DNA of 64,000 nucleotides from a virus. Below the pieces are notes generated by a model, which saw only the letters and a list, made by a program, of their open reading frames with translations, made no database searches and had not been told where the DNA came from. Numbering within the stretch: the stretch's first letter is position 1; each line of letters starts with the position of its first letter. The stretch covers positions 1 to 64,000 of the IMG/VR virus record IMGVR_UViG_3300032297_000368. The stretch is one strand, 5' to 3'. Below, piece by piece: positions 31,791 to 47,541 of this stretch. Made by a program: the position numbers and the translations under genes.

Positions 31791-31798
31791 TATTTATA
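31791..31798 (-). promoter_or_regulatory. T4-type late promoter TATAAATA
   Basis: Exact consensus ~28 nt upstream of the ATG at 31763. Confidence 0.7.
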
Positions 31799-33293
31799 CG
31801 TTATCTACCTTTTGTACCTGAGAGTTTAATTCAGGTTCAGGTTCAAATTTGTCATTACCTTTGTTCTTTTCTTTTGCTTTCTTAACTGCTTCACGTACAA
31901 TTTGTGCTTTACGTGATTCTTGTATTTGCACAGATTCAGGCACGCAGTTTGGAACTTTCTTGCCACCCTTCTTTTTCATACCAACCATCTGGTAACCTTT
32001 CCAACAAGGGTCTTCACCTTTCATCTCATTAGCTTCAGAAACTTTAGCGGTTTGTTTCTTCATAGCACTTTTAGCCAAATCACGAGCACGAGACATTGGT
32101 GTATGTTTTGCACCTGACTTATCTGTTACAGTGCCGCCTGTAGATTTCTTGTAAGGAGGATCAAAAGGTGGTGAGTATTTTTGTTTCAAATACTTGTCAA
32201 CTTTGCGATCATATTCATCTTTAGGTTTCTTAGCAACAGGAGTGGCATTTGGAGAAGGAACAAATGAATTAACTGCTTCATCGATCTCACTCATCATATA
32301 GTTGGCAACTGTTGAAATGTAATCTTCAGCAAGAGTGATCTTAGATTGAACCCACTCAGGAAGATTATCATTATCTTCCAACATGTCATGTACTCTTTGA
32401 GCATTGTTGATAATACTTTGTAATTGACCACGAGCCATATCACCTTCGTAATCATACTCTGTTTTTTCTTTTGCTTCATTCAAGCCATATTTCTTCTTGT
32501 ACCAATCTGGTGTGCCAGACTTTTTACGGAAATAACGTACAGTTGCCGAATCATTTGCTTGGTCACGATATTTGTTTTCTGCTGTTGTATTGTGACCTTT
32601 CATCGCTTCTGCTGCCTTGTGTGCATCTTTAGCAATGTATTCTAATTCAGCATTAGTCTTTTTGTGATACTCATGGCCTTCTAATGGATGACGTTGTGAT
32701 TGGCGACCTTCTTCCAATTCAACTTCTTCATGTAAATCAGCATGGCATGATCTATTTGGGCAACGATCTACATGATTCTTGAAGTTTTTTGCATCATCAT
32801 GAGATTTAAATTTAAAGTAAGCACCTTTATCAGAAGCACCATCATATGTACCGCCATGTTTTTTAAGTCCAGATACTACATGTTCAGTATCTTTTGCATC
32901 AGGTTCATTACCATATTTACTACCATCACTTACGTGAACTAAATGTTCTTCTTCAAGAGATTCAACTTCTTCTTTCATTGCATCAATCTCTTTTTGCTTT
33001 TGTGCTGCCATTTGTTTGTAATGTGAAGGATCAGGTAAACCAGATGCCTTACGTCTTGCAGCATGTTCACGTGCTAAACGTTCAGCAGGAGATTCAGGAG
33101 GCATCTTAAAGTTTACTTTAATCTTAGCCTCTTGCATTGATCGTTTCTTCACATGATCTACTTGTTGCTGATATTCTTGTGAATCAACTGTATAATGCTC
33201 TTCATCATCCGTAGAACCTTTCGGTCCCTTGTCATGATTAGGATCCATTTTAGCAAAACGAATCGATTTAAATACTTTAGATGCCTTCTTCAT
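31794..33293 (-). CDS. modular charged protein, putative internal head protein
   Basis: Short modules separated by (L/I/V)xE sites; CWKGY...KKVPNCVPE module. Confidence 0.6.
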   Translation of the reverse strand: MKKASKVFKSIRFAKMDPNHDKGPKGSTDDEEHYTVDSQEYQQQVDHVKKRSMQEAKIKVNFKMPPESPAERLAREHAARRKASGLPDPSHYKQMAAQKQKEIDAMKEEVESLEEEHLVHVSDGSKYGNEPDAKDTEHVVSGLKKHGGTYDGASDKGAYFKFKSHDDAKNFKNHVDRCPNRSCHADLHEEVELEEGRQSQRHPLEGHEYHKKTNAELEYIAKDAHKAAEAMKGHNTTAENKYRDQANDSATVRYFRKKSGTPDWYKKKYGLNEAKEKTEYDYEGDMARGQLQSIINNAQRVHDMLEDNDNLPEWVQSKITLAEDYISTVANYMMSEIDEAVNSFVPSPNATPVAKKPKDEYDRKVDKYLKQKYSPPFDPPYKKSTGGTVTDKSGAKHTPMSRARDLAKSAMKKQTAKVSEANEMKGEDPCWKGYQMVGMKKKGGKKVPNCVPESVQIQESRKAQIVREAVKKAKEKNKGNDKFEPEPELNSQVQKVDNV

Positions 33294-33295
33294 GA

Positions 33296-34219
33296 TTAAT
33301 CCTCTTTAGCTCGTTTAGTAGCAGTTGCGTACATTACAGACTTAGCGTCTTTACCATAACGTTCTTTGAAACCTGAAAGACCTTTTTTCATTGACATAAC
33401 GATATCTTCTTTCTTTTTAGATTCTGAAGCAGTCAATGAACGTTCTTCGAGGGCTTCTAATTCTTCTTTAGTTAGTTTTTTTACAGCACGACCAATACCT
33501 TTTTCACGATTGGACATTCTGCGTTCACGATCTTCAAGGTCTTTATCTCTTTCTGGATCTTCACCTGGATCACCATACTGACGGTGTTCATCTTCACCAT
33601 GGTCAAAAGCATCATTTGATTGATCTTTAGCAGCTTTCTTTATATAAGAACCGAGAGTTGATTTTGCGAGTTCATCAAGTTGTTCAATATCTTCAACAAA
33701 AATTTCATCGAGAGCCTTGATACCTTGTTCATCAAGTTTCTTCAACATACTTGTGAAAGATTCTTTGTATAGTTTGGTATTGGTTCTACGTTTTTGATTA
33801 GCACCGTAAGTCTTACCTTTTTTACCAGTCTTCTCTTCGGTTTCATCTTCATCTTTGTAATTACGTTCGTGTTTTAAACCAGTGGCAGTCTTAGTAACTG
33901 TACCTTTGGTGTAATTACCCATTCTACGGTGTGCATCAGCAACTGTAGGAAATGCTTCATCGATTTCTTCAACTTCCTCTTTTACTTTTACATTGTACTC
34001 TTTACCACCTGGTCCGATATCAGCAGTTCTTACACCGATAGGTTTCTTGGTGCTAACAACAGCAGGCTTCTTAGCACGTAAAAGTTTAAAGTCATGAGAA
34101 TCAATTTTACCATTCTTGTTGGCATCAATTTTATGTTGATTGCCTTTCAGTTCTTCATCCATAACATGTTGTACTGCATCAGCTACACCTTTCAGTGTTT
34201 TGTCGTTATAAGTTGACAT
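33296..34219 (-). CDS. modular charged protein, putative internal head/core protein with EF-hand-like loop
   Basis: DANKNGKIDSHD loop; EIDE, QLDE, ALEE junctions; C-terminal VMYATATK module. Confidence 0.6.
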   Translation of the reverse strand: MSTYNDKTLKGVADAVQHVMDEELKGNQHKIDANKNGKIDSHDFKLLRAKKPAVVSTKKPIGVRTADIGPGGKEYNVKVKEEVEEIDEAFPTVADAHRRMGNYTKGTVTKTATGLKHERNYKDEDETEEKTGKKGKTYGANQKRRTNTKLYKESFTSMLKKLDEQGIKALDEIFVEDIEQLDELAKSTLGSYIKKAAKDQSNDAFDHGEDEHRQYGDPGEDPERDKDLEDRERRMSNREKGIGRAVKKLTKEELEALEERSLTASESKKKEDIVMSMKKGLSGFKERYGKDAKSVMYATATKRAKED

Positions 34220-34854: not shown

Positions 34855-35157
34855 TTAACAATTCCATTTTCTCAACGATTTGTTGATACGTGAATCTGGA
34901 TCACGTGCTGTTTCAGCTGATGTTAGTTTATCTTTCATGCCTCGCATTCTACGGCAGAATGATAATCTACGTTTAGCTGACTTAGAACCTTTTTTTAATT
35001 TTGATGGATCTGTAGTAACAGCAGTTTGTAACTTGGAACCTGGATTTTCACGGCGATAAGATTCAACTCCTTTTTGGTTTAAACCACCTTCAGGATTTTT
35101 TCCTTCTTTACGCTGCCATGCCGCAGATTCGTTAATAAATTCTTTGAATGATATCAT
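34855..35157 (-). CDS. conserved small basic T4-like protein with capsid-targeting-like N-terminus
   Basis: MISFKEFINE; GGLN.KG, RR.SFC.RM, SRINKSLRKWNC. Confidence 0.75.
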   Translation of the reverse strand: MISFKEFINESAAWQRKEGKNPEGGLNQKGVESYRRENPGSKLQTAVTTDPSKLKKGSKSAKRRLSFCRRMRGMKDKLTSAETARDPDSRINKSLRKWNC

Positions 35158-37394
35158 ACGAATTTCTTAGCCTTAAAAGTTTGTAGGTTAATACCTTTAC
35201 GTTTCAGTTCACCTTCTTTTTGATCGCCAATACTCATAGTTGTTTCATCACCAGTCATCTCAGTAACTTGTGATGCCTTACCATCTTTCTTACGAATCTT
35301 TTCACCTGTATCACGAGCAATGCTTTCACCAGATGCCGCCATAGAAAGACCTGGTTCTATGTTCTTGTCTATGGATTCGGCGATTTTGGCTTTCTGCCTT
35401 TGCCTGATTTCGATGAGTGAGAGTTTTTCTCGTTGCTCGTTGTAGTTTTGTGGCTTGGCGATTTCGGTTTGTTTTGATACGTTTTCTTCGGGGTGTATGT
35501 CTTTTTTGGCTGGTCGATAGGCTTTAAATTTGGCTCTGATCGAGTCTGCTGCTGGGGTTGAGACGGTTGGATCGGTGTTGCTTCCGTCTGTTCCGTCTTC
35601 TTGAATAGTTTCTTTACGAAATCTAGCATCTTCATTCTCCTTTATTTTAACAATGTAGCCAGTTTTATGTTTCATCACTTCACCATTTTTTAGGTGAGCT
35701 TCTTTTGCTGCAGCTCTACGTAACATAAACACTCTCAATTTACCTTTACCATCACGTAGTAGTTTAACTTTTTCATCCAACAATTCAACATCTTCATCAA
35801 CAAACAATTCTTCAAACTCTTCATTAACTTTCTTTCTTGGTTTCTTTGTCATTGATGTACCTGGAGTTGGAACTGAACCTGCTTCTTTTGGATCTTCTTT
35901 TGGTATTTCAACCAACTTACCATTAACTGAATGATGTGTAACTTTACCATTTCTACCATAACGGCCAAATCCATAATAAGTTAATCCCATAGTATTCATC
36001 TTATCTTTATGTGGATTTTCTGGATGTGCAGCCATTGTTGTTTTACTTGGTGATGGTGCAGCAGACAATCTATCTTTACGTGACATCTCATGTGCAATCC
36101 ATTCTTCAGCCTTAGGATTGGCAGCAGGTTGTTGTGTGAATTCACGGACACTTTTGAAAATGTCCATCATCTCACCTTTCTTTTGTTTAACAACTTCGGG
36201 TGGTGCTGATCTTAAATCTTCCGAATTATCAAACTCATGGTAATTATCACCAAACATTTTAGCATATTCAGTACGAGCATTCTGTACGCTTTCCCATTTT
36301 TCACGGCGAATGTTTTCTGGTACAGTACGACCACCACGTTGTCCACGTTCAATGTTTCTCTGTTGCGAGACTTCATCTTTAGTATTAACTAGAACCATCT
36401 TGGAGTCATATCCAAGTTCTTCCAAACGTTTTTTGATCTTAGTAACTTTCTCTACATCATCACCTGTACCATTGATGATAAGACCATTTCTACCTAATAG
36501 TGCCAATCGTTGGCGCAATTCGGTCATACTCTTTGCTTTACCACGAACAAGATTTCTTTTCTCTTCTTCACTTGCCGGCATTTTCTTATCAAGACCATTT
36601 TTATCCATTAAGAATTCTAATGCCTTATCTGAATTGATCTCTGTCAATCCATGGCCTGATAGTGTGTTATCTAACACATAGTCTTTACCAGAACCAGGTC
36701 CCCCAGCAAGAAATACTACTTTAAAGATTGATTGATCGTGAACACCTTCATTCAATAAACTTTCAAACTTGGTGTTGATATCTTCATGTAAGCTCATACC
36801 TTTATGTACATCATGCATTAATTCTTTTGCATGTTTATCTGATACATGTGCAGGTACACCTTTACGGAAAGATTTGAAATCATTGTTCTTAACATGTTCA
36901 CGCATCTTTGTACCAGAAATGCCTGTATCACCTTCAGCATCCGGATCTCTTGTACCTGCGGAATGTATTGTGATCTTTTTGAAATGAAATGGTACTTTGC
37001 CTTCTTTGTTAGGTTTACCATTTAGTTCTTTGAATTTTTGTTTGTACTCGGGTACACGATCTGAACCTGCAACAACATGTAGATGTGTTACGCCACTCTT
37101 ATGCAATTCAGCGGCATGTGAGAAAATGGTAGGATTTTCTTTACTAGAGGCTTTTATGTTGGCACCTGGAGCATAACGCTTTAAATGCTTAACTTTTTGT
37201 TCGCCAGATAATGGATTCTTTTTAGAATCTTGTGAGTGAGATACAATCATATGATGTTCGCCACCTACGTCTTTGGCAACATCTTGCACCTTATTAATAA
37301 CTTTAAGGTGACCAGTGGTTGGTGGGTTCATACGACCGTAAGCTAATACGGCGTGTTTTTCTTTCTGTTCGACCAGAAAATCTTTGAAATTCAT
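35154..37394 (-). CDS. cytidylyltransferase-like (HxGH) domain fused to P-loop kinase (PNK/zeta-like) plus C-terminal modules
   Basis: GRMNPPTTGH, KKNPL, GSDR, SGTKMR; LAGGPGSGK, RNIER lid; N-terminus MNFKDFLVE. Confidence 0.85.
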   Translation of the reverse strand: MNFKDFLVEQKEKHAVLAYGRMNPPTTGHLKVINKVQDVAKDVGGEHHMIVSHSQDSKKNPLSGEQKVKHLKRYAPGANIKASSKENPTIFSHAAELHKSGVTHLHVVAGSDRVPEYKQKFKELNGKPNKEGKVPFHFKKITIHSAGTRDPDAEGDTGISGTKMREHVKNNDFKSFRKGVPAHVSDKHAKELMHDVHKGMSLHEDINTKFESLLNEGVHDQSIFKVVFLAGGPGSGKDYVLDNTLSGHGLTEINSDKALEFLMDKNGLDKKMPASEEEKRNLVRGKAKSMTELRQRLALLGRNGLIINGTGDDVEKVTKIKKRLEELGYDSKMVLVNTKDEVSQQRNIERGQRGGRTVPENIRREKWESVQNARTEYAKMFGDNYHEFDNSEDLRSAPPEVVKQKKGEMMDIFKSVREFTQQPAANPKAEEWIAHEMSRKDRLSAAPSPSKTTMAAHPENPHKDKMNTMGLTYYGFGRYGRNGKVTHHSVNGKLVEIPKEDPKEAGSVPTPGTSMTKKPRKKVNEEFEELFVDEDVELLDEKVKLLRDGKGKLRVFMLRRAAAKEAHLKNGEVMKHKTGYIVKIKENEDARFRKETIQEDGTDGSNTDPTVSTPAADSIRAKFKAYRPAKKDIHPEENVSKQTEIAKPQNYNEQREKLSLIEIRQRQKAKIAESIDKNIEPGLSMAASGESIARDTGEKIRKKDGKASQVTEMTGDETTMSIGDQKEGELKRKGINLQTFKAKKFV
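35369..35629 (-). CDS. putative overprinted gene in an alternative frame
   Basis: AAGGAG-N7-ATG; MLDFVKKLFKK amphipathic start plus K/P/Q-rich tail. Confidence 0.5.
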   Translation of the reverse strand: MLDFVKKLFKKTEQTEATPIQPSQPQQQTRSEPNLKPIDQPKKTYTPKKTYQNKPKSPSHKTTTSNEKNSHSSKSGKGRKPKSPNP

Positions 37395-37434
37395 GTCTGC
37401 CTCTACAGCAAAAAATATATTAAATTTTACTATC

Positions 37435-37441
37435 TATTTAG
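37435..37441 (-). promoter_or_regulatory. late promoter variant CTAAATA
   Basis: Also upstream of genes at 12288, 13962, 57314 and 60405; ATAAATA at 16095. Confidence 0.55.
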
Positions 37442-38145
37442 TATATTTCTACTTTTCCTGTACTGGCCATGGTGCCTTGGCAGTGAATATTTTCTAATTC
37501 TAACAGATATTTTTTGTCAATATTATACCAATGTGCATGTTCCGTGTCAACACCTTGCGTTTGTACATCGTTTAGATTTTTCTGGCAAACTTGCAGATAG
37601 TCGTCAAACAAAGATATACAGAAAGAAAACAATCTGGTAATTAGAAGATTCGAGTATATCTGTTGTCTCTTGTCCGTTATCCATGTTGGCATGGCTTTCT
37701 TGAACACATACTTACCAAACTTATCATGTTCTAGTGCATCGAATTGATCTAACAGGTTTGTACGTGCCGACAATTTAAAGATTCGTTTGACTGAACTTAA
37801 CTCTTTCATCAAATCCACATTACGTTTGAATATGATTAGAGTTTTAAGTATCAGTACATTTTCAGCCTCGCTCTTTCGACCTGTAGAAGCAAACTGTGTA
37901 ATATCAGGATCAGTTGACATATCTAATATCACATCACAATAATGTGCAATTCTATCGTAAGTTTCACGGTCAACTTTATTAGGAGAACCATCAGTAAATA
38001 CAATCATATCATGTGGACATTTTTCACGTAATGATTTAAGACCTTCTATTGTTTGTTGTAGTCGATCTTCATTGTTAATGACACCCATATTAGGATTCAA
38101 AGCAGATGTCACAATAAACAGATTTCTATTTAAAAGAATACTCAT
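37438..38145 (-). CDS. putative glycosyltransferase-like protein
   Basis: IVTSAL...R..QT, DGS, FKLSAR, D.EH motifs; inside the sugar island. Confidence 0.55.
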   Translation of the reverse strand: MSILLNRNLFIVTSALNPNMGVINNEDRLQQTIEGLKSLREKCPHDMIVFTDGSPNKVDRETYDRIAHYCDVILDMSTDPDITQFASTGRKSEAENVLILKTLIIFKRNVDLMKELSSVKRIFKLSARTNLLDQFDALEHDKFGKYVFKKAMPTWITDKRQQIYSNLLITRLFSFCISLFDDYLQVCQKNLNDVQTQGVDTEHAHWYNIDKKYLLELENIHCQGTMASTGKVEIY

Positions 38146-39149
38146 AGTTTTATTTTTCTCATGGTGTCTATCATCAAAGATTCTATGTCTGTATTAGGTT
38201 TCCAACCCAATATTTCTTTTGCCTTGTCATAAGAACCTAAGGCAAACTTATTAACTTCTCGTTCTAATACTTCAGGCTTCAAAGTCTTCTCACCTTCATT
38301 CAGTACAGGATAACCTGACCAGAATTTGGTCGATGGATTAAATGTAGGTTTAATTGGTTCTTGAAATGCGGATTCAGCATAACCTATAATATCTCTAACT
38401 GAAGTTAATGTATTGGTGCATACATTAAAGATTTCATTCTTAGCTTCTTCTTTAGATAAGCATAACTCAATCAGATTAACTACATCATCAACGTGTACAT
38501 AATCTCGAACTTGTTTACCGTTTGAATAGAATACTGGATCTTTACCATTGATAATCGTCTTTGCGATATAGTTAATCAAAGGTGGAGATTCACGATGAAT
38601 GTCTTGTCTAGGACCAAATACATTGAAGAATCTTAGTGTAACGATATCCATGTCATAGTTCTTGATGTATGATTGAATAACTTCTTCCATCAACTTCTTA
38701 GATAATGGATAGAATAATCGAGGTGTTACTTCTATATCTTCATCGAATGGTGCATCGAGTCTGCTATTGTTTTCGTATATTGCTGAAGTACTTGCAACAA
38801 TAACTCTCTGGCCTCTAGACTTTCGAACTGCATCTAGTATCGATGCTGTACCTGCAACATTAACTTTGATACACTCGGCAGGATCACTTTCACATACAGG
38901 CAATGCTGTTATAGCTGCAAGGTGAATGACTACATCGATCTTATGTTTCTCTAAAATGAAAAACATCTTAGCACTTTCTAAGATATCATCTTGGTAGAAA
39001 TCACATATCATTTCACCATCTTCGATTAGGTTTGCTATGTAACCATTGTTGAGATTATCAACAACAACTGGAGTATGGCCATTATTTTTCAATAGTAGTG
39101 CTAGAGTAGAACCTATACCACCTGCACCACCAGTAATTAATATATTCAA
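38142..39149 (-). CDS. NAD-dependent nucleotide-sugar epimerase/dehydratase
   Basis: TGGAGGIG, HLAA, YxxSK, LRFFNVFGPRQ, RDYVHVDD. Confidence 0.92.
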   Translation of the reverse strand: MNILITGGAGGIGSTLALLLKNNGHTPVVVDNLNNGYIANLIEDGEMICDFYQDDILESAKMFFILEKHKIDVVIHLAAITALPVCESDPAECIKVNVAGTASILDAVRKSRGQRVIVASTSAIYENNSRLDAPFDEDIEVTPRLFYPLSKKLMEEVIQSYIKNYDMDIVTLRFFNVFGPRQDIHRESPPLINYIAKTIINGKDPVFYSNGKQVRDYVHVDDVVNLIELCLSKEEAKNEIFNVCTNTLTSVRDIIGYAESAFQEPIKPTFNPSTKFWSGYPVLNEGEKTLKPEVLEREVNKFALGSYDKAKEILGWKPNTDIESLMIDTMRKIKL

Positions 39150-40165
39150 ATCAAGTCCTTCAATTGGTCAGAATCACGAGGTATGTTTACTGCTACTGCT
39201 GTTGGGTATGGATTAGTTTTAGCGTAATCATTAATCAAGATACGTTTTGAATGATGTACTTCCATAATCAAATCACAATCGGCAAAACCTAAATCATCTA
39301 ATAGATTTCTAGTAATAGATTCATACTTTTTATTTCTTGCCGTACAGAAGATGATCTTACAACCTTCTTCTTTCTTTTGAATTAACTTCTGTACATTCTC
39401 CATGATTGGTTCATAATCATCATAGTAATCATTTTGAGTCTTGATTATTGTACCATCGATGTCGCAGAAATAAGTAGGTTTATCATTGAATTTAAACCAA
39501 TCATCGGCAGTACCAACATCAATAAAGTTTCTGGTATTTTGTTCTACGAATACACTGCCTGTAGATATCATGTAATCGATAATATTAGATACGAATATCT
39601 CACTCTTCCATGTAGATGTTAGTAATCTATAAGCACGAGCAAAATCAGCCGCAGACTTAAACTGATAACCACCTACACAAAAACTATCACTCACAATTTT
39701 CTTTTCAACTACTGAACTGATAATGTTTTGTTCATTAGTAATCGTATAACTTTTGGCTGGTGCGTTTCTTATATCAGGATTTTCAGATAACTTAGATACA
39801 TAGATGGCATTTCCTTCTACCAAATCTGTATCATAAAAACCATCACAGTCTTTAATTAATATCGGTGAATTCATATTGATTGCACCAGTCATCAACGTTT
39901 GATAAACTGTATCAGCAGGACCGGCAGTTGGTTGACCTAGAACAACAATACTAACCTTATCACCAAAAGCATCTTTCAATTTCTGTGAGGCCTTATACTT
40001 GTCATCATGCGCTCTCAGAATCGTAATAACAATCCTGTGTTTACCTAAGAAGTTTTTAATGGCATTTTCAATCATCATCTTACCCGAATAATCGGTAAGT
40101 AGATACTTTGGCCTCATATTCGGGAATCTGGTCGATAGACCAGCACATGGCATAATTATTTCCAT
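39146..40165 (-). CDS. sugar nucleotidyltransferase fused to HAD phosphatase
   Basis: PCAGLSTRF...PK, KDCD, DVGT; C-terminal CDIDGT, TAR, INDY. Confidence 0.85.
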   Translation of the reverse strand: MEIIMPCAGLSTRFPNMRPKYLLTDYSGKMMIENAIKNFLGKHRIVITILRAHDDKYKASQKLKDAFGDKVSIVVLGQPTAGPADTVYQTLMTGAINMNSPILIKDCDGFYDTDLVEGNAIYVSKLSENPDIRNAPAKSYTITNEQNIISSVVEKKIVSDSFCVGGYQFKSAADFARAYRLLTSTWKSEIFVSNIIDYMISTGSVFVEQNTRNFIDVGTADDWFKFNDKPTYFCDIDGTIIKTQNDYYDDYEPIMENVQKLIQKKEEGCKIIFCTARNKKYESITRNLLDDLGFADCDLIMEVHHSKRILINDYAKTNPYPTAVAVNIPRDSDQLKDLI

Positions 40166-40899
40166 AATTTCTTTATCTCATCTATCAAAAATTTTTCGTC
40201 AGTATCATTTCGTGTATATGGTAATACTCTCATCAACATCAAGATTAAAATATAATCATTATTAAAATGAGGATAATCTTGTAATCCATCAATTATAGAT
40301 TGTAGTTTAGAATCTAAGTAAACTGAATCATTACGTATGAACCATTTACATTGTAAGTCTTGTCTTAGTTTTGCTAAGTCGAAAACAAATGAACTATAAA
40401 CAGTTGTTAATGGATCAATTAAAACAAATTCATTCTTTTGTGTATTGTATAATACATTCTCTAGAGTAAAATCACCATGATACTCAGAATAAGGTAAATA
40501 CTCTGGTAACTTACCAATTAATTCTTCTGTAGTAAAAGGTAAGTTGTATTGTGTAAAATCTTTCTCTGCTAACTTAGTTCTATAAACATCAACAAAACTC
40601 ATCTCTATAGTCTTTTCAGATAGTTTGTCTATAGTTTCCCTAATGAATTTTATTATCTCATTAGTTTGATTAGTTGCAAGATAAGTTTTCATATCTAGAT
40701 TAGGAATATACTCCATATTATAATGAGTGTCAAGAACCTCATATATAATTGGTATTTTTATACCTAAATGTGACAATACATCATATCTCTCCAAATTGCG
40801 AGAAATATCTCCAGACTTACGGACAAATATTCCGTTGTCATCTACTAATTCAACTTCAGCTTTAGAGTATCCCATAAATTTTTTTAGTCTTTTTGCCAA
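40156..40899 (-). CDS. APH/choline-kinase-like sugar kinase
   Basis: MEYI, HGDFTLENVL, LIDP, DLAKL. Confidence 0.8.
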   Translation of the reverse strand: MAKRLKKFMGYSKAEVELVDDNGIFVRKSGDISRNLERYDVLSHLGIKIPIIYEVLDTHYNMEYIPNLDMKTYLATNQTNEIIKFIRETIDKLSEKTIEMSFVDVYRTKLAEKDFTQYNLPFTTEELIGKLPEYLPYSEYHGDFTLENVLYNTQKNEFVLIDPLTTVYSSFVFDLAKLRQDLQCKWFIRNDSVYLDSKLQSIIDGLQDYPHFNNDYILILMLMRVLPYTRNDTDEKFLIDEIKKLWK

Positions 40900-41594
40900 T
40901 TTTCAAAATCGTCCCGTATCAAAGAGTGCCATGTGCCGTTATGGGGACCTGGTGGAAAAGGATGATTTGGATTAAAATACACCAAGTTATGACCAACAAG
41001 ACCTTTTTCTTTCCAGTTGGCACTCATCATATCTTCACCGATCATTGTAACGCCATCATCGTAATGTCTATCAATGTTATTAAACGAATCTGCATAACTG
41101 TTCATATGTCGTGATGAAGAGAATGCAAATTGGTCATTACCAAAATCACGGTCAGGTGTCATTCGACAATTTGGTATATACAGTTTAGAATCATCTAGTG
41201 TTTCAAATGGTATGACAACATTCAAAGCAAAGTCATATCGACTGCGAACAACCCAATCAAAATACATTTTATGTTCATGTTCATACTCCATCTTCAACTC
41301 ATTAGCCTTCATCAAGGCATATTGTTGATTCCAAGTTGCACGTGCCGGATCTTTTACTTTCCAATTTGGTTGTGGAGGAGGAACTCTGGTGTATTTTGAT
41401 AGATCATTATCTAGCGATGCCTCAACAGCAAACTTTGCAGGTTTGTATAGTTCGAATATATCTTTGGCCTTTGGTGTTTGCCATACATGACAGAATACGG
41501 TAACATCATAACGATCTAATAAATTCTTTTTATGATATTCAAACCCTTGTTCGAAACACCTAGGTTGTCCTGATAAACATAATGCAATTTTCAT
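40884..41594 (-). CDS. putative glycosyltransferase
   Basis: KIALCLSGQPR, DWVVRSRYD, NDQFAF, GE motifs. Confidence 0.65.
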   Translation of the reverse strand: MKIALCLSGQPRCFEQGFEYHKKNLLDRYDVTVFCHVWQTPKAKDIFELYKPAKFAVEASLDNDLSKYTRVPPPQPNWKVKDPARATWNQQYALMKANELKMEYEHEHKMYFDWVVRSRYDFALNVVIPFETLDDSKLYIPNCRMTPDRDFGNDQFAFSSSRHMNSYADSFNNIDRHYDDGVTMIGEDMMSANWKEKGLVGHNLVYFNPNHPFPPGPHNGTWHSLIRDDFENWQKD

Positions 41595-42292
41595 TTGTAG
41601 AATCTTTCAAAAACTTCTTCATTAATTTTATAATTACGATCTGATGGTAAATTAGTCCTACACAAAGTATAGTAACTATTCACATCACTAAATTGCTCTT
41701 CTTGTGATATTAAATGTATCTCAGAAGGATCAATATACTGTATCAGTTTATTATATAGTCCATGTGTATCATGTGACATTGCAGAATCTCTATATGCACC
41801 GTAAGATTCGTGTAGAGATTTCTTCACAATACTGGTCATTCTTTGTGGCCACACATAAAAATTATCTGTAGTATATCTTAAATCATTCCAATGGTTTGAT
41901 TCTGGAAATAGAAAGTTAAATTTATTCACATCTATATTTTCATCTAACATAACTCTATTAAAGTGTATATCAGAACGAGTTAAGATAAACAAGTCTGCAT
42001 CTACAGTCTCTAATAAATCTAATGCGCCACTCTTTGTGGTGAATCCATCAGAGTTCTCAAACTTACAGTAATTAATCTCTTTAGGTTTTACTAAATCTAC
42101 TATATCGGCTTCTATCAAAGGATTAAATGATTTGTATGTTGAAAGATATAATTCAACTTCATGACCACTTTGTATGGCAGGATCAACTAAATTCTTTTTG
42201 ATATTTGGCCAACAATGACGAAGGTCTCTGAGACTGCCGAACTTGCCGCCAGTCCCGTAGATTATACCAAAAAGACAGATTGCTATTCTCAT
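41591..42292 (-). CDS. putative glycosyltransferase, paralogue of downstream gene
   Basis: RIAICLFG, DLFILTRSD, DNFY. Confidence 0.55.
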   Translation of the reverse strand: MRIAICLFGIIYGTGGKFGSLRDLRHCWPNIKKNLVDPAIQSGHEVELYLSTYKSFNPLIEADIVDLVKPKEINYCKFENSDGFTTKSGALDLLETVDADLFILTRSDIHFNRVMLDENIDVNKFNFLFPESNHWNDLRYTTDNFYVWPQRMTSIVKKSLHESYGAYRDSAMSHDTHGLYNKLIQYIDPSEIHLISQEEQFSDVNSYYTLCRTNLPSDRNYKINEEVFERFYK

Positions 42293-42858
42293 TTAACCCA
42301 ATACCAAACATCACATTCGGTGGTCAAGATTTCTTTACCCATCTTGGCAGCAAATTCTTTTACTGCCTTATTAACACCAGGTATTACAGTGAAATCATGT
42401 CCTGCAAATATACCACCATCTTTTACTTTTGAATAATAGTTTGCACAATCTATAGAGAGTTGCTCGTAAGTATGTAAACCATCAATAAAAATATAATCAA
42501 AAAAAGAATCATTTAAAAGTCCCACAGCCTCATCAGAAGTTTTTTTATAAAAATTAAATCTTTCACCAAAAGGTAATAGACGTTGCATTGCGGTATCAAA
42601 GACTTCATTTCGATTGTCTAAGTTTCTACCATTCCAATCAACATAAGTCATGTAAGGATCAATGACATGTAATGTTAATTGTGGTAAACTGGATAACATG
42701 AAGTGTGAAGTATCTCCTATATCACATCCAATTTCTAAACCAACAATTGATTCTCTATCTTTAACTAAGTCACGTAGTCCATAACCAGAACATTTCATCT
42801 CTGTTGCTGGTCGGCCAAATGCTTCATGCTCGGTGTTAATTGTAATTGTATCACTCAT
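42289..42858 (-). CDS. class I SAM-dependent methyltransferase (Methyltransf_24-like)
   Basis: LEIGC, IDP, IFIDGLHTYE, GGIFAGHDF. Confidence 0.88.
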   Translation of the reverse strand: MSDTITINTEHEAFGRPATEMKCSGYGLRDLVKDRESIVGLEIGCDIGDTSHFMLSSLPQLTLHVIDPYMTYVDWNGRNLDNRNEVFDTAMQRLLPFGERFNFYKKTSDEAVGLLNDSFFDYIFIDGLHTYEQLSIDCANYYSKVKDGGIFAGHDFTVIPGVNKAVKEFAAKMGKEILTTECDVWYWVK

Positions 42859-43693
42859 ATTTTGCCTCTATAATTTTTTTCCATTCAGGTACACGATCAT
42901 ATTGATGCACTATTACATATTCTTTTCCTTCAGATGTAACAACTTTATCGCCTTCTAATTTAGGAGTTGCCTCTACTAAGAAAGGTTTGAATTGTTCTAT
43001 CTTACTAGGATCAGCAGTAGTTCCTAATTGACATGCCCATCCATCTTCTGAAGTCATGTACATACTACTCTTCAAATAAGGATGTTGTGATATCAATACA
43101 TTAAATGTAGATTGATCTACAATAGGAATTGGACGATTGATTGATGATAAGAAGATGTTTAATGCTAAAGACTTCATAGCATAACCACGGCCTGCCAATA
43201 CACCAACGTTGAATATAACATTGTTCTTGAAGTGATCGTGAATCATAGGACCGAAAGTCTCTAATAGATTCTGATTGCCCCATGGTTCATCTTTGTAACG
43301 AATGCTTTCAGAAGAGAATACTAAGTCTTCAGATGAACCATCTGGTAGATGTTGTTCTAACCATTCAACAGGATTTTTCTGAAAGATAACGTCTTTAACA
43401 TCAGTGGTAATAACATACCGATAGTCTTGTGATTTTAATGTATTGTAGATGTGAATGAATCTTTCAACGTGTACCATCAATTGAGATTGATACACTAAGT
43501 TTCCATTATCATCTTGTTGAAATGCAATAACACTGAAACCAGCATTACTGACTTGTTGAACTGTTTCTTTATCACAATTCATAAGAATCAGGACTTTATC
43601 GCCTTCAAATCCTGATTTATTAATTGAATTAACCCAATACTTCAGTTTCGACCAATCATAGTTAGTCGAACATCCTATAATCAAATCCTTCAT
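42851..43693 (-). CDS. GT-A fold glycosyltransferase-like protein
   Basis: TDVKDVIFQ.NP, NVGV..G, DQ..FN, VHQYDR. Confidence 0.75.
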   Translation of the reverse strand: MKDLIIGCSTNYDWSKLKYWVNSINKSGFEGDKVLILMNCDKETVQQVSNAGFSVIAFQQDDNGNLVYQSQLMVHVERFIHIYNTLKSQDYRYVITTDVKDVIFQKNPVEWLEQHLPDGSSEDLVFSSESIRYKDEPWGNQNLLETFGPMIHDHFKNNVIFNVGVLAGRGYAMKSLALNIFLSSINRPIPIVDQSTFNVLISQHPYLKSSMYMTSEDGWACQLGTTADPSKIEQFKPFLVEATPKLEGDKVVTSEGKEYVIVHQYDRVPEWKKIIEAKYE

Positions 43694-43706
43694 AATAACT
43701 CCAATT

Positions 43707-44441
43707 TTAATTTACATATTTTCTAAATCTTTTGATACTTTGACCTGGTGTTCCTTTTATATAGTTATCTCGTAGCTCTGGTCTTCCATCTTCACCCGCA
43801 CCAGCCTTAGATACGAACTCTTGTTCTTCTTTAATAGTTCTAATAGAACCATTATGACTTGCTAGATATGCTGAAAACTGTACATCTGGAAATTCTTTCT
43901 TCATTGCCAACATTGCTGTCAAATTACTCATAGCATCATCAAACAAACGAACTCTACTAAATTTACCATACTTTAAATATTTACGTATGATCTTAACTTT
44001 GTTTTCTGCACTAGGGTTATTACCTAGATTACCTGCACGTTCAACATAAACTTTATCCATATCAACACCGTGTTGCCTGAATGTATCTAGGAACAAATGT
44101 TTATTGTCGAAATCGGAACGTGCTGTGATTATTATAACACGACTATTGGATTTATTCGAGACATTTTTTAAAATACTCTTCAACTTTGCCATCATTCGTG
44201 GTATAACTTTTGATTCTTTATTGAACTTCTCAGCATCTCTAAACTGACTGTAATCAAATGATTCGCCAGCTTTAAGTTTATATGTATTAAACTCTTGATT
44301 AGTCAATTCTTTAATGACTTTACCAGATTTAATAACGGCAATCTTTGCTGTTGTTTGGAATAAAGTCTCATCAATATCAAATATGGTAAGTCCACCACCT
44401 TCTTCGATAGACTCATTTAAAAATTGTGTGAAGTTTTTCAT
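43707..44441 (-). CDS. HAD phosphatase (Pnkp/RNA-repair HAD-like) with capsid-targeting-like N-terminus
   Basis: Start MKNFTQFLNE; IFDIDETLF, ITAR, K, LFDD motifs. Confidence 0.8.
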   Translation of the reverse strand: MKNFTQFLNESIEEGGGLTIFDIDETLFQTTAKIAVIKSGKVIKELTNQEFNTYKLKAGESFDYSQFRDAEKFNKESKVIPRMMAKLKSILKNVSNKSNSRVIIITARSDFDNKHLFLDTFRQHGVDMDKVYVERAGNLGNNPSAENKVKIIRKYLKYGKFSRVRLFDDAMSNLTAMLAMKKEFPDVQFSAYLASHNGSIRTIKEEQEFVSKAGAGEDGRPELRDNYIKGTPGQSIKRFRKYVN

Positions 44442-44446
44442 TTTTA

Positions 44447-44767
44447 TTATACTGTGAATGATGATCCACAACCGCAACTTGCTTTTGCGTTTGGATTATT
44501 TACTACGAATTGAGAAGATGTCATATCTTTTTTGAAGTCTATGGTTGCTTCATTTAAATATTGCATTGATATTGCATCTACTAAAACTTTAATGCCGTGT
44601 TGTTCAAATGATAGATCATCTTCTGAAGCCTGTTCTTCAATTGTAAACCCATATTGAAAACCAGAACAACCACCACCTTGAACAAATACACGCAATGAAC
44701 CTGGAGTATCTTCATCTTCTAAAATACTTTTTATTTGTTTTGCTGCCGATTCTGTAATCTGTATCAC
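44447..44767 (-). CDS. erpA: A-type Fe-S cluster carrier (ErpA/IscA family)
   Basis: GGGCSGFQYGF, NPNA...CGCGSSF. Confidence 0.9.
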   Translation of the reverse strand: MIQITESAAKQIKSILEDEDTPGSLRVFVQGGGCSGFQYGFTIEEQASEDDLSFEQHGIKVLVDAISMQYLNEATIDFKKDMTSSQFVVNNPNAKASCGCGSSFTV

Positions 44768-44768
44768 A

Positions 44769-45050
44769 TTAACCTCTCGTTAGATTCAATATCTTTTGTA
44801 TTTGAGTCTCTAATGTTTCTTTACGGTTTGGCCATTTAATGATTGGTTGATCTGCCGTCTTTAATAATTTAGTTAAGAAAGGCAATATTAATTTCTCGAC
44901 TTGTTGTAAACGTTCTTTATATTCTTCTGCCGTTTCTTCTTTCTCGGCAATTACATCTGTATATTCTTCTTCATCTATTGCTGTGAATCCGAAATCATCA
45001 TCAGCAAATTCATCAATAATTTTACTTAGGTCAAATTTCTTTTCAGCCAT
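44769..45050 (-). CDS. conserved hypothetical protein
   Basis: DDFGFT, ILPFL..L, I.WPNR. Confidence 0.7.
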   Translation of the reverse strand: MAEKKFDLSKIIDEFADDDFGFTAIDEEEYTDVIAEKEETAEEYKERLQQVEKLILPFLTKLLKTADQPIIKWPNRKETLETQIQKILNLTRG

Positions 45051-46276
45051 TATTTACTCCAATTCTTAGCAGCATTAAAGTTTGCTTGACTAAACTCTAA
45101 TCTATCTACAAGTTTTACCGCATTACCTTTAAGTCTATCAACAGCAACAAATCCTTCTGGTGCTGTAATTCTATAACCATCGTCTGTACGTATGAATGTA
45201 CCGATTGAACGAATGGTTTCTAATTTACGTACAATCAATAATTTACAATCAACTAAAAGATTCATCAGTTCAAAAATCTTTTGTAATTCGCCAGCAGAAC
45301 CACGGAAGAATCTCATCATCTCATTCTTCTCTGCAATTCTTTTCTTCTTAGTATCATCTCTCTTTGCTGCTTGTACTTCTTTATTTAACTTCTCTTCAAT
45401 CCATTTTATCAGTTCAACAGTGTGAGCTCTTGTATTGGTAATCTTCTGCCCTTGGCGTATCTTTGTGTTGTTGAATGTTTTAATGAAAGTTAGAATAGAA
45501 TCTACGGAAGATATTCTATTTAACACTATAGAATTAATACTTCTAAATGTTCTACCTGCTTCGGTTAATTTACTTGAAAGTATTTTAGTTTCAGTTTCGG
45601 TGAATGTTGCAGTACCTGAAGCATCAGTGAATGAAGCATCACGGAACCAAACATCTTTAGTTGTTGATAGATTACCAATATCGATGTTGAATGATGCCTT
45701 CATATCAGACATTGTTTTACCTGTGTATGAGGTATGAAACACTACACCAACATGTGCAGCCATCATTGTCTTTGCCAGTTTAGAATCTGAAGGCACAGCA
45801 TAAACAATTGTATTAGGTTGAAACACTATGTACTCTTCACCATCAATTATTTTTGTATCGATATCACCTTTACTAAACATCATATCACCTTGAAGGATGC
45901 CTTTGATGCCTAGTTTAGGTAGATAACGTAATGCCATTTTAAGTTTATTGTTAAGACCTTCAGAAGCATGATTGTTATCAATATCTTCTTCTGTATAATT
46001 TAATTTAGCATCTTTATTGAATACTGATTTAGTACCAACAAAAAACTTACCGTTTTCTGGATTGGTGCCAACAAAAATTGCTGGCGCACCGTCCCATTTA
46101 GTTGTGATATTAATCTTTGACTGTGCATGACCAGCAAGCATATCACGCAAACTTTGTAAGAAATTTATGGCACCTCGAGCACCAGCAACTCCGCCATTTA
46201 AGACTTCATCTTCTAGATGTTCGAGGTGTAAATTCTTACCTTGTTTATCTTCTGTTAAATATTCTATGAATTTCAT
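45050..46276 (-). CDS. conserved T4-like protein (DUF6267-like) with covalent nucleotidyltransferase/ligase motifs
   Basis: HLEHLED; KWDG (motif I), QGD (III), EGFV (IV), VKLVDR (V); N-terminus MKFIEYLTE. Confidence 0.7.
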   Translation of the reverse strand: MKFIEYLTEDKQGKNLHLEHLEDEVLNGGVAGARGAINFLQSLRDMLAGHAQSKINITTKWDGAPAIFVGTNPENGKFFVGTKSVFNKDAKLNYTEEDIDNNHASEGLNNKLKMALRYLPKLGIKGILQGDMMFSKGDIDTKIIDGEEYIVFQPNTIVYAVPSDSKLAKTMMAAHVGVVFHTSYTGKTMSDMKASFNIDIGNLSTTKDVWFRDASFTDASGTATFTETETKILSSKLTEAGRTFRSINSIVLNRISSVDSILTFIKTFNNTKIRQGQKITNTRAHTVELIKWIEEKLNKEVQAAKRDDTKKKRIAEKNEMMRFFRGSAGELQKIFELMNLLVDCKLLIVRKLETIRSIGTFIRTDDGYRITAPEGFVAVDRLKGNAVKLVDRLEFSQANFNAAKNWSK

Positions 46277-46278
46277 TT

Positions 46279-47505
46279 TTAGTATATCTTTACAAATGGT
46301 CCGTTAGTGTCTCTAAATTCTTTCTTTGCACCATAGTATAATGTTTTCAACCATTCAGCCATTAATCCTTTCTTCTCGATTAAAGCCCAAGCATATGCCC
46401 ATCTCATACATGTCAACTTTGATGATAATCTTCCACCAGCATACTTAGAACCCTCCTCTCGAATAGAATAATCTAATACATTAGCAAACGAACCAGTAGA
46501 AACTATTTTACCTTTATACACAACTTTCATTTCACCAAAATCTATACTCATACGATTGACTTTAAGTTTAGATAACTCTTTTTGAAAATCAATCCAATAT
46601 TTTTTAGTTTCTGTTGTCCATTTTCCTACAGGAGGAATATGAGGGTCTTTACCTGCATTAACTGGTCTAATTATTCCGAGTTTATTATAATATTTCGAAA
46701 AGAACTCATCAATGGCGTCAGCAGAAGCTTTACCAATTTTAGCACCAGCATCTTTTCCTGTAGGAGTTAAATCGGTCTGAACACCACCTCTAGGAGTTGA
46801 CATGTTAAAGTTTCTTGTTTGCCAATTAACAATTGTATCGTTCACTTTAAATTGTCCAGCAATTTCTCCATTATCTATCTCTGTTGGAGTTTTGTTATTT
46901 GTTCCGAAATTTGCATAACACTTCAAGGGGCCAACATTTTCAAATGTTAACTCTTTCTGTTTGCCTTTACCCATATTAGATAATTCTAAATCAGCTTTAG
47001 CTTTAGTTTTAGAAATAGCTTTAAGTGATACAGGAACTAAATCTTTAGTTTGTATTAATTCTCTCATGTACGCATTTAAAGAATAAAGATTGGCCATTTT
47101 ATCAGGATTTTTAGTGATTGAATCTAATTTTTTTCTTATTACATTTTCTTTTGTTTTTCTAACCATGTAAATATCAGCAGGATCCCAATTATCTTTTGTT
47201 GAAACGCCACATCTTTTTTTAGCAATATCTTCAATGAATGCCATAAAACCATCTCGTTCATCACGAGAATAGGAATATCCTTTATTACTATCGCCTAGAT
47301 AATTTTTTAGAGCAATACATTGTTTAGTGTATGTAGATAACCATATTTCTCTAAGTTTTACGTCTTTAGCTAATTGAGGATAAACTTGTACGATCTCAGA
47401 AAACAACTGAGATTCTGTAGGTGTTTTAACACTTTCAATCCATAATTTGAAAGCAACTTTAGAACCATTCTCTTGTTTAGCTGTCTCTATCGCATTGCCG
47501 GCCAT
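46279..47505 (-). CDS. putative PD-(D/E)xK restriction-like nuclease
   Basis: N-terminal QE, WDPADIY, VSLK catalytic-type motifs. Confidence 0.55.
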   Translation of the reverse strand: MAGNAIETAKQENGSKVAFKLWIESVKTPTESQLFSEIVQVYPQLAKDVKLREIWLSTYTKQCIALKNYLGDSNKGYSYSRDERDGFMAFIEDIAKKRCGVSTKDNWDPADIYMVRKTKENVIRKKLDSITKNPDKMANLYSLNAYMRELIQTKDLVPVSLKAISKTKAKADLELSNMGKGKQKELTFENVGPLKCYANFGTNNKTPTEIDNGEIAGQFKVNDTIVNWQTRNFNMSTPRGGVQTDLTPTGKDAGAKIGKASADAIDEFFSKYYNKLGIIRPVNAGKDPHIPPVGKWTTETKKYWIDFQKELSKLKVNRMSIDFGEMKVVYKGKIVSTGSFANVLDYSIREEGSKYAGGRLSSKLTCMRWAYAWALIEKKGLMAEWLKTLYYGAKKEFRDTNGPFVKIY

Positions 47506-47533: not shown

Positions 47534-47541
47534 TATTTATA
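47534..47541 (-). promoter_or_regulatory. T4-type late promoter TATAAATA
   Basis: Exact consensus upstream of the 47505 start. Confidence 0.7.

Follow-up and report, generated by a model that had tools for sequence, protein, structure and literature searches.

A candidate T4-type capsid-targeting leader on ligase-like, phosphatase and nucleotidyltransferase-kinase proteins of a marine T4-like phage

Why do four late-region proteins of a marine phage, unrelated in fold, begin with nearly the same ten residues? The question is raised by the IMG/VR virus record IMGVR_UViG_3300032297_000368, a marine T4-like myovirus contig of 81.5 kb whose first 64 kb (64,000 nucleotides) form the window analysed here; positions are given in window numbering unless marked as contig. 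The nearest cultured relatives are Methylophilales phage Melnitz, Pelagibacter phage HTVC008M and cyanomyoviruses, all of them Kyanoviridae. An earlier annotation derived from the letters alone (the sequence-only reading) had pointed out near-identical leaders ending in Glu on four late-region proteins, and all four were recovered on the minus strand: the genes share the N-terminal pattern M-x(1-2)-F-x-x-[F/Y]-[L/I]-x-E, which occurs in no other of the contig's 119 open reading frames (ORFs). They encode a DUF6267 protein, a HAD-superfamily phosphatase, a 746-aa protein joining a nucleotidyltransferase to a P-loop kinase and a small basic DUF6321 protein (Table 1). We consider it probable that the shared decapeptide is a T4-type capsid-targeting sequence (CTS) loading these ligase-like, HAD, nucleotidyltransferase-kinase and DUF6321 proteins into the head, a cargo fitting the healing and sealing of broken ends.

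The leader and its likeness to the T4 capsid-targeting sequence

The leader is common to four unrelated folds. It lies outside every Pfam domain match, the domain beginning after it in all four proteins, and it is disordered in the AlphaFold model of the DUF6267 protein, where residues 1-11 are the only stretch with a predicted local distance difference test score (pLDDT) below 50; it is therefore regarded as an appendage. Its codons differ among the four genes (TTA/CTG, GAA/GAG, TTC/TTT), and the likeness is thus one of peptide and not that of a DNA repeat.

The T4 CTS is MKTYQEFIAE, in which mutational mapping has assigned residues 4 and 7 to targeting and residues 8 and 10 to processing by gp21 (PMC9026906). 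The window leaders keep these positions as F, F or Y, [LI] and E, two of them in identical register (10 residues) and two one residue shorter, so that the likeness to T4 noted earlier extends to the functionally mapped residues. The gp21/gp22 machinery is also present: a prohead module at contig 75.7-81.4 kb encodes gp23, gp22, the gp21 prohead protease and the portal, with head gene profile matches at contig 75.7-78.8 kb to phrog_207 (2e-76; gp21 protease), phrog_237 (2e-88) and phrog_138 (3e-156). Sites of the form L-x-E are present in gp23 and gp22. Leader-like beginnings are also found on ORFs that lie between portal and protease, in T4 the place of the prohead core, one with MNFVDHIIKNKLVE followed by an extremely basic tail and another with MKYLNEFKSIVEE. 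As an observation in its own right, a 146-aa ORF in this position (contig 79185-79625) carries L-x-E four times within residues 1-51, ahead of an extremely basic Arg/Lys-rich tail, and by its sequence looks like an internal DNA-binding head protein.

The likeness to the leaders of T4 IPI, IPII, IPIII and Alt comprises an N-terminal propeptide of ~10 residues, aromatics at positions 4 and 7 and [I/L]-x-E at positions 8-10. As in T4, the tag is portable between unrelated proteins, its genes appear to be late, homologues of gp21, gp22 and gp23 are encoded and the cargo would include enzymes, Alt being the packaged enzyme of T4. The systems differ in that the cargo here consists mostly of sizeable enzymes, whereas that of T4 includes small basic anti-restriction proteins; in that fusion proteins can have the tag inside the chain as well, where two domains meet; and in the hosts, which are marine heterotrophs and cyanobacteria. 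Packaging and cleavage, moreover, are here a matter of inference.

The proposed mechanism can be briefly summarized as follows. The tagged genes would be transcribed late, and the aromatics at positions 4 and 7 would dock their products onto the gp22 core that scaffolds the prohead. Removal of the tag after the conserved [L/I]-x-Glu would then be the work of the gp21-like protease, and the mature enzymes would remain in the DNA-filled head, presumably to be ejected along with the genome. The 746-aa cargo protein would probably be cut at an internal site as well. The combined chemistry of the cargo would fit the healing and sealing of broken nucleic-acid ends. That the proteins of this phage are packaged, clipped after Glu and ejected, and that broken ends are their substrates, is our inference throughout.

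Table 1. Coordinates of the leaders, tagged genes and neighbouring features in the window
Feature	Position	Strand	Remarks
Leader MKFIEYLTE of the DUF6267 gene	46250-46276	-	
Leader MKNFTQFLNE of the HAD gene	44412-44441	-	
Leader MNFKDFLVE of the 746-aa gene	37368-37394	-	
Leader MISFKEFINE of the DUF6321 gene	35128-35157	-	
DUF6267 protein, 408 aa	45050-46276	-	Pfam PF19782, E 7e-117; 130-aa helical insert
HAD-superfamily phosphatase, 244 aa	43707-44441	-	DxDxT (DIDET), T, K and DD motifs
746-aa protein	35154-37394	-	HIGH-type nucleotidyltransferase (~10-205), P-loop kinase (~225-395), charged low-complexity tail
Internal leader-like heptad FESLLNE, residues 210-216 of the 746-aa protein	36747-36767	-	Exactly between nucleotidyltransferase and kinase domains
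DUF6321 small basic protein, 100 aa	34855-35157	-	PF19846, E 2.6e-19
TATAAATA, T4-late-promoter-like	47534-47541	-	36 nt upstream of the ATG at 47505; at the head of the operon 46279-47505 > DUF6267 > 93-aa ORF > IscA-like > HAD
CTAAATA, late-promoter-like variant (ACTAAATA)	37435-37441	-	48 nt before the ATG (37394) of the 746-aa gene
First gene of the putative late operon, 408 aa	46279-47505	-	phrog_1462, function-unknown family; no leader in this phage
Two untagged operon genes	44447-45050	-	Acidic 93-aa ORF (44769-45050); IscA-like Fe-S protein (44447-44767)

The leader in related phages and in cyanophage virions

In close homologues of the DUF6267 protein, leader positions other than the determinants vary, and F, F/Y, L/I and E are kept. 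Many of 150 DUF6267 representatives (37-61% identity) carry the leader at a fixed short distance before a conserved KNxHLEHLED, some starting at the domain itself; in N-terminally extended fusions the motif is located just ahead of the domain, and it is found in ~45% of 126 diverse representatives when internal copies are included. An N-terminal leader is present in 103 of the 120 clusters of HAD homologues, and its Glu10 is at least 90% conserved among 39 homologues. Further tagged genes are present in the same neighbourhood of Melnitz and HTVC008M; the Melnitz counterpart of the first operon gene begins MQGFKTFLSE. The idea that a leader is kept in the linker of cyanophage DUF6267-cytidylyltransferase fusions was rejected, these linkers being without such a motif.

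Family specificity was evaluated with a regular expression fixed beforehand on 80 IMG/VR loci around HAD homologues, amounting to 849 kb and 1161 ORFs. Matches were obtained for 62 of 82 HAD, 22 of 35 DUF6267, three of four DUF6321 and both kinase genes, plus 22 ORFs of other families, and for none of the gp41 (0/25), p93 (homologues of the 93-aa operon ORF; 0/36), glycosyltransferase (0/19), IscA (0/12) or DruA-like (0/10) genes. The sequence-only reading had stated that replication and metabolic genes do not carry the leader, which agrees with the contig, where no ORF beyond the four matches, and with the replication and metabolic neighbours in these loci. Two other kinds of leader-bearing protein were observed, both of them candidate further cargo families: proteins of ~405 aa (MLKFKSFL.E) immediately upstream of HAD-DUF6267 in several related phages (L082:4637-5854, L084:8713-9930, L088:8691-9917), and small proteins of ~90 aa (MKTFNEFIVE) in tandem copies in related loci.

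These results bear on the simplest alternative, a chance or compositional likeness in which AT-rich start-proximal codons yield MK/MN...F...E with no function. The genome has a G+C content of ~35%, many ORFs begin with MK or MN, and the first regular expression was built after the four leaders had been seen, so that its four matches among 119 contig ORFs, against 0.42 expected, constitute a post hoc test; a looser heptad is also commoner at contig N-termini (5 observed vs 1.2 expected, p=0.007). Chance nevertheless fails to account for a motif kept in homologues down to ~40-50% identity while the flanking residues vary, and for the strict family specificity in the related loci; it is already contradicted by the HAD clusters and by the N-terminal enrichment of the heptad in cyanophage S-CREM2 (p=5e-7), and is scarcely credible. 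A DNA repeat or a start-codon composition effect was ruled out by the differing codons, the four matches in 119 ORFs and the family specificity.

Evidence from particles is available for relatives. NMNAT-like cytidylyltransferases and, in some papers, also kinases and an S-adenosylmethionine (SAM) hydrolase were found in CsCl-purified T4-like cyanophage particles, the authors leaving undecided whether they are cargo or contaminants (PMC10665884, PMC9602691). For S-CREM2, 219 coding sequences (CDS) were rebuilt from the record and compared with the 52 proteins detected by mass spectrometry (MS) in the published Table 3. The predetermined expression matches six of the 219 CDS, four of which are MS-detected (Fisher p=0.029), and a tighter pattern, the minimal generalisation of the four window leaders, matches three CDS, all detected (p=0.013). 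All three 'regulatory' virion proteins of this phage are tagged, namely the SAM hydrolase (MKDFDSFLEE), the kinase (MKRFDAFLTE) and the cytidylyltransferase (MKNFSSFLTE), as are two small or basic virion proteins; the tag is missing from other late structural proteins. This pattern would be what a CTS predicts, the numbers being small and late expression being confounded with the tag.

Other cyanophages point in the same direction. In a 49-kb locus of S-SCSM1, the virion NMNAT (MKSFLQFLKE) alone of 71 CDS is matched. In S-CRM01 the tag is present on a kinase (gp130), its small neighbour gp129 and a cytidylyltransferase (gp127); a kinase and a cytidylyltransferase are reported from the virions of this phage without gene numbers. 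The DUF6321 protein of the window is similar to the C-terminal end of gp137, a virion protein of S-CREM2 whose N-terminus is not leader-like. Packaging as proposed by the sequence-only reading is thus well supported, if indirectly, in that leader-bearing homologues and other tagged enzymes are MS-detected non-structural proteins of cyanophage virions. Separately, an S-CREM2 virion protein annotated 'Cas9-like' (gp12; L009:7704-10313) and gp128 of S-CRM01 (L007:9397-9948) have leader-like FASFMAE and LDSFIKE, respectively, ~17-25 residues in, and share an N-terminal 'RW..WS.G' stretch ahead of the motif that may represent a longer propeptide. In the literature, no paper was found that links the capsid-targeting sequence to cyanophages or their virion enzymes, and none that names DUF6267.

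The time of expression was approached through promoter-like motifs. Late promoters had been announced upstream of the tagged genes, which holds in part: CTAAATA precedes the 746-aa gene and TATAAATA is located at the operon head, but not directly before the DUF6267 or the HAD gene. The DUF6321 ATG shares bases with the stop of the 746-aa gene ahead of it (ATGA). In the window TATAAATA is rarer than expected (3 copies vs 8.8 expected), and it recurs at -33 of the contig gp22 gene. The CTAAATA variant is also found at contig ORF 80412-80609, in the prohead module, and at the S-CREM2 structural genes gp18, gp20 and gp22. Every tagged gene or operon of S-CREM2 has (T/G)ATAAATA 27-31 nt before the ATG; TATAAATA itself is located at -27 to -30 of the leader-bearing genes, gp14 excepted, which belongs to a gp15-headed operon. 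These motifs make the tagged genes candidate late genes.

The same motifs enter a second alternative, in which the decapeptide is selected for another purpose, as a docking peptide for the sliding clamp, a chaperone or the membrane, or as a degradation or translation-efficiency tag, and virion detection reflects co-purified abundant late proteins. All tagged genes are behind late-promoter-like motifs, and tag and abundance are therefore confounded. The proteome authors themselves could not exclude contamination by highly expressed proteins. DUF6267 also adjoins the gp41/UvsX/gp43 replication genes in every relative examined, and the contig has the gp43, UvsX and gp41 genes upstream of the tagged ones. 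Such a purpose nevertheless leaves unexplained why the four conserved positions are the very ones that mapping identified in the T4 CTS, among them the final Glu needed for gp21 cleavage, why [LIVM]-x-E usually stands ahead of DUF6321 whether N-terminal or internal, why N-termini resembling the tag occur on ORFs in the prohead-core position and why other late structural proteins are without the tag; we hold it to be improbable.

Several results weigh against loading by a CTS itself, in addition to the possible co-purification just mentioned. The statistics of the S-CREM2 test are modest, with p=0.16 when limited to proteins of at least 100 aa. The virion MS evidence reaches the cytidylyltransferase homologues and a DUF6321-bearing protein, in other phages only. 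Internal copies of the motif cannot serve as an N-terminal signal, and cleavage fits them better than targeting. Co-occurrence of the leader in related phages, which had been proposed as a check, is evident for the HAD clusters and many DUF6267 proteins but fails for the DUF6267-cytidylyltransferase fusions of cyanophages such as S-PM2, which are without an N-terminal leader; the tag is therefore optional for the DUF6267 family, and packaging is either not universal or achieved by another route. Taken with these points, the leader is real, conserved and family-specific, and a T4-type signal for capsid targeting and cleavage is, with reasonable confidence, its best explanation.

The tagged proteins

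The 'ligase-like' call for the DUF6267 protein is upheld by near-invariant motifs and by the predicted fold. In an alignment of 116 homologues, K60, D62, G63, E374, G375, V377 and K388 are near-invariant, and K60, D62 and G63 of motif I (KWDG) are at least 90% conserved; EGFVA (374-378) fits motif IV, KLV (388-390) fits motif V, and QGD (129-131) is a candidate motif III. A model built with AlphaFold2 from this alignment reached a pLDDT of 91.5, a single-sequence model (pLDDT 39) having been discarded. It displays a helical insert of ~130 residues and no OB domain. Comparison with VIA-align gave RNA ligases as seven of the eight best matches (Z 8.8-7.4), led by NgrRnl (5cot, Z 8.8 over 187 aligned residues), TbREL1 (1xdn, 8.0) and T4 Rnl2 (2hvq, 7.8), with further matches to Trl1 (7.8/7.6), Rnl3 (7.4) and T4 Rnl1 (6.7); about 12 DNA ligases followed (Z 5.6-6.6). 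In BFVD, once matches within the family are set aside, the annotated RNA ligase of Atu_ph07 comes first (E 1.7e-3).

Structure prediction and fold search, as had been suggested, gave ligase matches for the DUF6267 protein with VIA-align and in BFVD but not against the PDB, where Foldseek returned nothing at E<=0.001. A profile hidden Markov model (HMM) of the family found nothing among PDB sequences either, and the structural matches to ligases are moderate (Z 6-9). Given the empty profile and Foldseek PDB searches, DUF6267 is a very divergent ligase member at best; the model and the motifs support its assignment as a divergent RNA-ligase-like covalent nucleotidyltransferase. With known RNA ligases (Rnl2/REL1, the Rnl5 enzymes NgrRnl and DraRnl, Trl1, T4 Rnl1) it shares motif I (KxDG), a putative motif IV (EG[FY]V) and a putative motif-V lysine, near-invariant and apparently in the right order, as well as the best-matching nucleotidyltransferase fold, the lack of an OB domain and fusion or adjacency to a P-loop kinase and a HAD phosphatase. 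It differs from them in having no HMM-detectable sequence similarity, in the ~130-residue helical bundle between the N-terminal half and motifs IV/V and in being usually fused or adjacent to a HIGH-type nucleotidyltransferase. To our knowledge, no RNA repair system uses a HIGH-type nucleotidyltransferase.

The HAD protein has the full set of catalytic motifs, and its designation as a phosphatase is retained: D22, D24, T26, T106, K148, D168 and D169, covering all four motifs, are invariant in 39 homologues. Matches to subfamilies are weak (phrog_415 'polynucleotide kinase', E 2.4e-6; Acid_phosphat_B; HisB-N). A profile HMM of the HAD alignment gave nothing meaningful against PDB sequences, with no specific match to a polynucleotide kinase (PNK) phosphatase, and a search of NCBIfam added nothing specific. 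No relative was found in cultured phage records, the one match belonging to an unannotated uncultured phage.

The enzyme motifs listed by the sequence-only reading were for the most part recovered (KWDG, DIDET, GGPGSGK, RNIER), but its 'HxGH' is in fact TTGH, accompanied by ISGTKMR. These two signatures belong to the nucleotidyltransferase domain of the 746-aa protein, which matches CTP_transf_like (3e-5) and the cytidyltransferase families phrog_3041/395. The kinase domain contains GGPGSGK and RNIER and matches Zeta_toxin (2.6e-12) and AAA_33 (3.8e-7) in Pfam and phrog_505 PNK (1.3e-4). No match to NMNAT or AAA_28 was obtained in Pfam, NCBIfam or PDB sequence searches, distant kinship being possible at such sensitivity. 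The heptad occurs in this protein at the N-terminus and as FESLLNE only, the latter being by its sequence a candidate internal gp21-type cleavage site. In HTVC008M the kinase is a separate gene that begins MIPFILKE, with unchanged distance to the P-loop. An 88-aa ORF (35369-35635) lies in another frame within the low-complexity tail.

DUF6321 was found in 120 other proteins (P0271-P0390; 179-1818 aa), in nearly all of them as a C-terminal module of ~87 aa that is 80-94% identical. It is usually preceded by [LIVM]-x-E and then 2-4 residues, mostly small, an arrangement which the own leader of the window protein recreates. By these comparisons it looks like a mobile, strongly constrained basic module. 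Its partners have unrelated N-terminal parts, some with Zeta-type kinase or LysM domains. The presence of the tag at domain borders of fusion proteins suggests polyprotein processing.

Repair, cofactor metabolism and the gene neighbourhood

The tagged enzymes are linked to each other by fusion and by position. Fusions were seen of the types kinase-DUF6267 (P0180), cytidylyltransferase-DUF6267, DUF6267-cytidylyltransferase and kinase...DUF6321, and in at least 37 of the 80 loci the HAD gene stands beside that of DUF6267, in one or the other of two arrangements. A ligase, a kinase and a phosphatase form the classic heal-and-seal set. The likeness to T4 Pnkp and Rnl1 is that one phage encodes a P-loop kinase, a HAD phosphatase with DxDxT and an enzyme of ligase fold, with fusions or neighbouring positions tying them to each other. 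Unlike in T4 Pnkp, kinase and phosphatase are separate genes ~7 kb apart, and the kinase is not demonstrably of PNK type. The repair enzymes of T4 are early, cytoplasmic and not packaged.

The kinase had been called PNK-like by the sequence-only reading, which could not be established: its best matches are Zeta/AAA_33 in Pfam and, among PDB sequences, UMP/CMP and adenylate kinases, so that its likeness to nucleoside monophosphate kinases at least equals that to PNK. This result also tells against end repair, as does the description by Iyer et al. of HIGH-nucleotidyltransferase/P-loop-kinase fusions of jumbo phages as NAD salvage enzymes. Both favor a third alternative, in which packaging is correct and the enzymes act on nucleotides or cofactors: a NadR-like NMNAT/nicotinamide-riboside kinase and a HAD nucleotidase would rebuild NAD+ or reshape nucleotide pools early in infection, and DUF6267 would adenylylate a target other than a polynucleotide. 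The domain order, a HIGH nucleotidyltransferase and then a P-loop kinase, is that of NadR-type enzymes, published annotations name the homologues NMNAT and these recur in cyanophage virion proteomes; the HAD protein, for its part, lacks a specific PNK-phosphatase match in the PDB.

A NAD or nucleotide function, although a serious rival, is nevertheless rather unlikely on the present evidence. The nucleotidyltransferase domain has generic family matches only, with no detectable sequence match to solved NMNATs, and the kinase has none to the AAA_28 RNK family; the long charged tail, the DUF6321 partner and the tight linkage to a ligase-fold enzyme are also foreign to NadR-type proteins. NAD salvage has no use for an enzyme of ligase fold that is recurrently fused or adjacent to these proteins; the kinase-ligase fusion P0180 mirrors Trl1-type repair, Trl1 LIG-KIN being among the structural matches. 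As regards end repair, a repair-kit function with injection against host defences is a fair possibility that falls short of being probable.

The surroundings of the tagged genes were also inspected. A megablast of the region against phage records gave no match, and the DUF6267 protein is 49% identical to its Melnitz counterpart. The IscA-type iron-sulfur cluster protein (PF01521, 2.7e-23) is encoded inside the putative late operon, between DUF6267 and HAD; its gene adjoins HAD in 13 of the 80 related loci and has a leader in none. A seven-gene sugar-activation/glycosyltransferase island (37438-43693) separates the tagged genes into two groups and comprises an NAD-dependent epimerase, a nucleotidyltransferase-HAD fusion, a kinase, a methyltransferase and glycosyltransferase-like ORFs; in 20 of the 80 loci HAD is followed by a gene homologous to the first glycosyltransferase of this island. 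Just downstream of the tagged genes (31794-34219) are two strongly charged mosaic proteins of 499 and 307 aa, which may be further head-internal polyproteins. A Cys-containing 'PCWKGY...VPNCV' module of the 499-aa protein is also found directly before DUF6321 in other phages (P0345, P0365, P0366, P0374).

In its widest form, the proposal is that marine T4-like phages (Kyanoviridae, including the relatives of Melnitz and HTVC008M) use a CTS-type tag to load a modular, partly polyprotein-encoded head arsenal, including a hitherto unrecognised RNA-ligase family (DUF6267), HAD phosphatases, nucleotidyltransferase-kinases, SAM hydrolases and protein kinases, which would be ejected with the DNA and would repair host-inflicted RNA/DNA breaks or restore cofactors before phage gene expression. 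This generalization is tentative, and doubtful as a whole. If it were true, the tag would settle the question of cargo versus contamination for the NMNAT-like enzymes, kinases and SAM hydrolase of cyanophage particles, and a core-like gene of these phages, DUF6267, could be placed in a biochemical family, that of RNA-ligase-like proteins. A pre-loaded enzymatic counter-defence would be suggested, and a simple sequence rule could then predict which proteins are encapsidated and injected in a phage group that ranks among the ocean's most abundant, uncultured members included.

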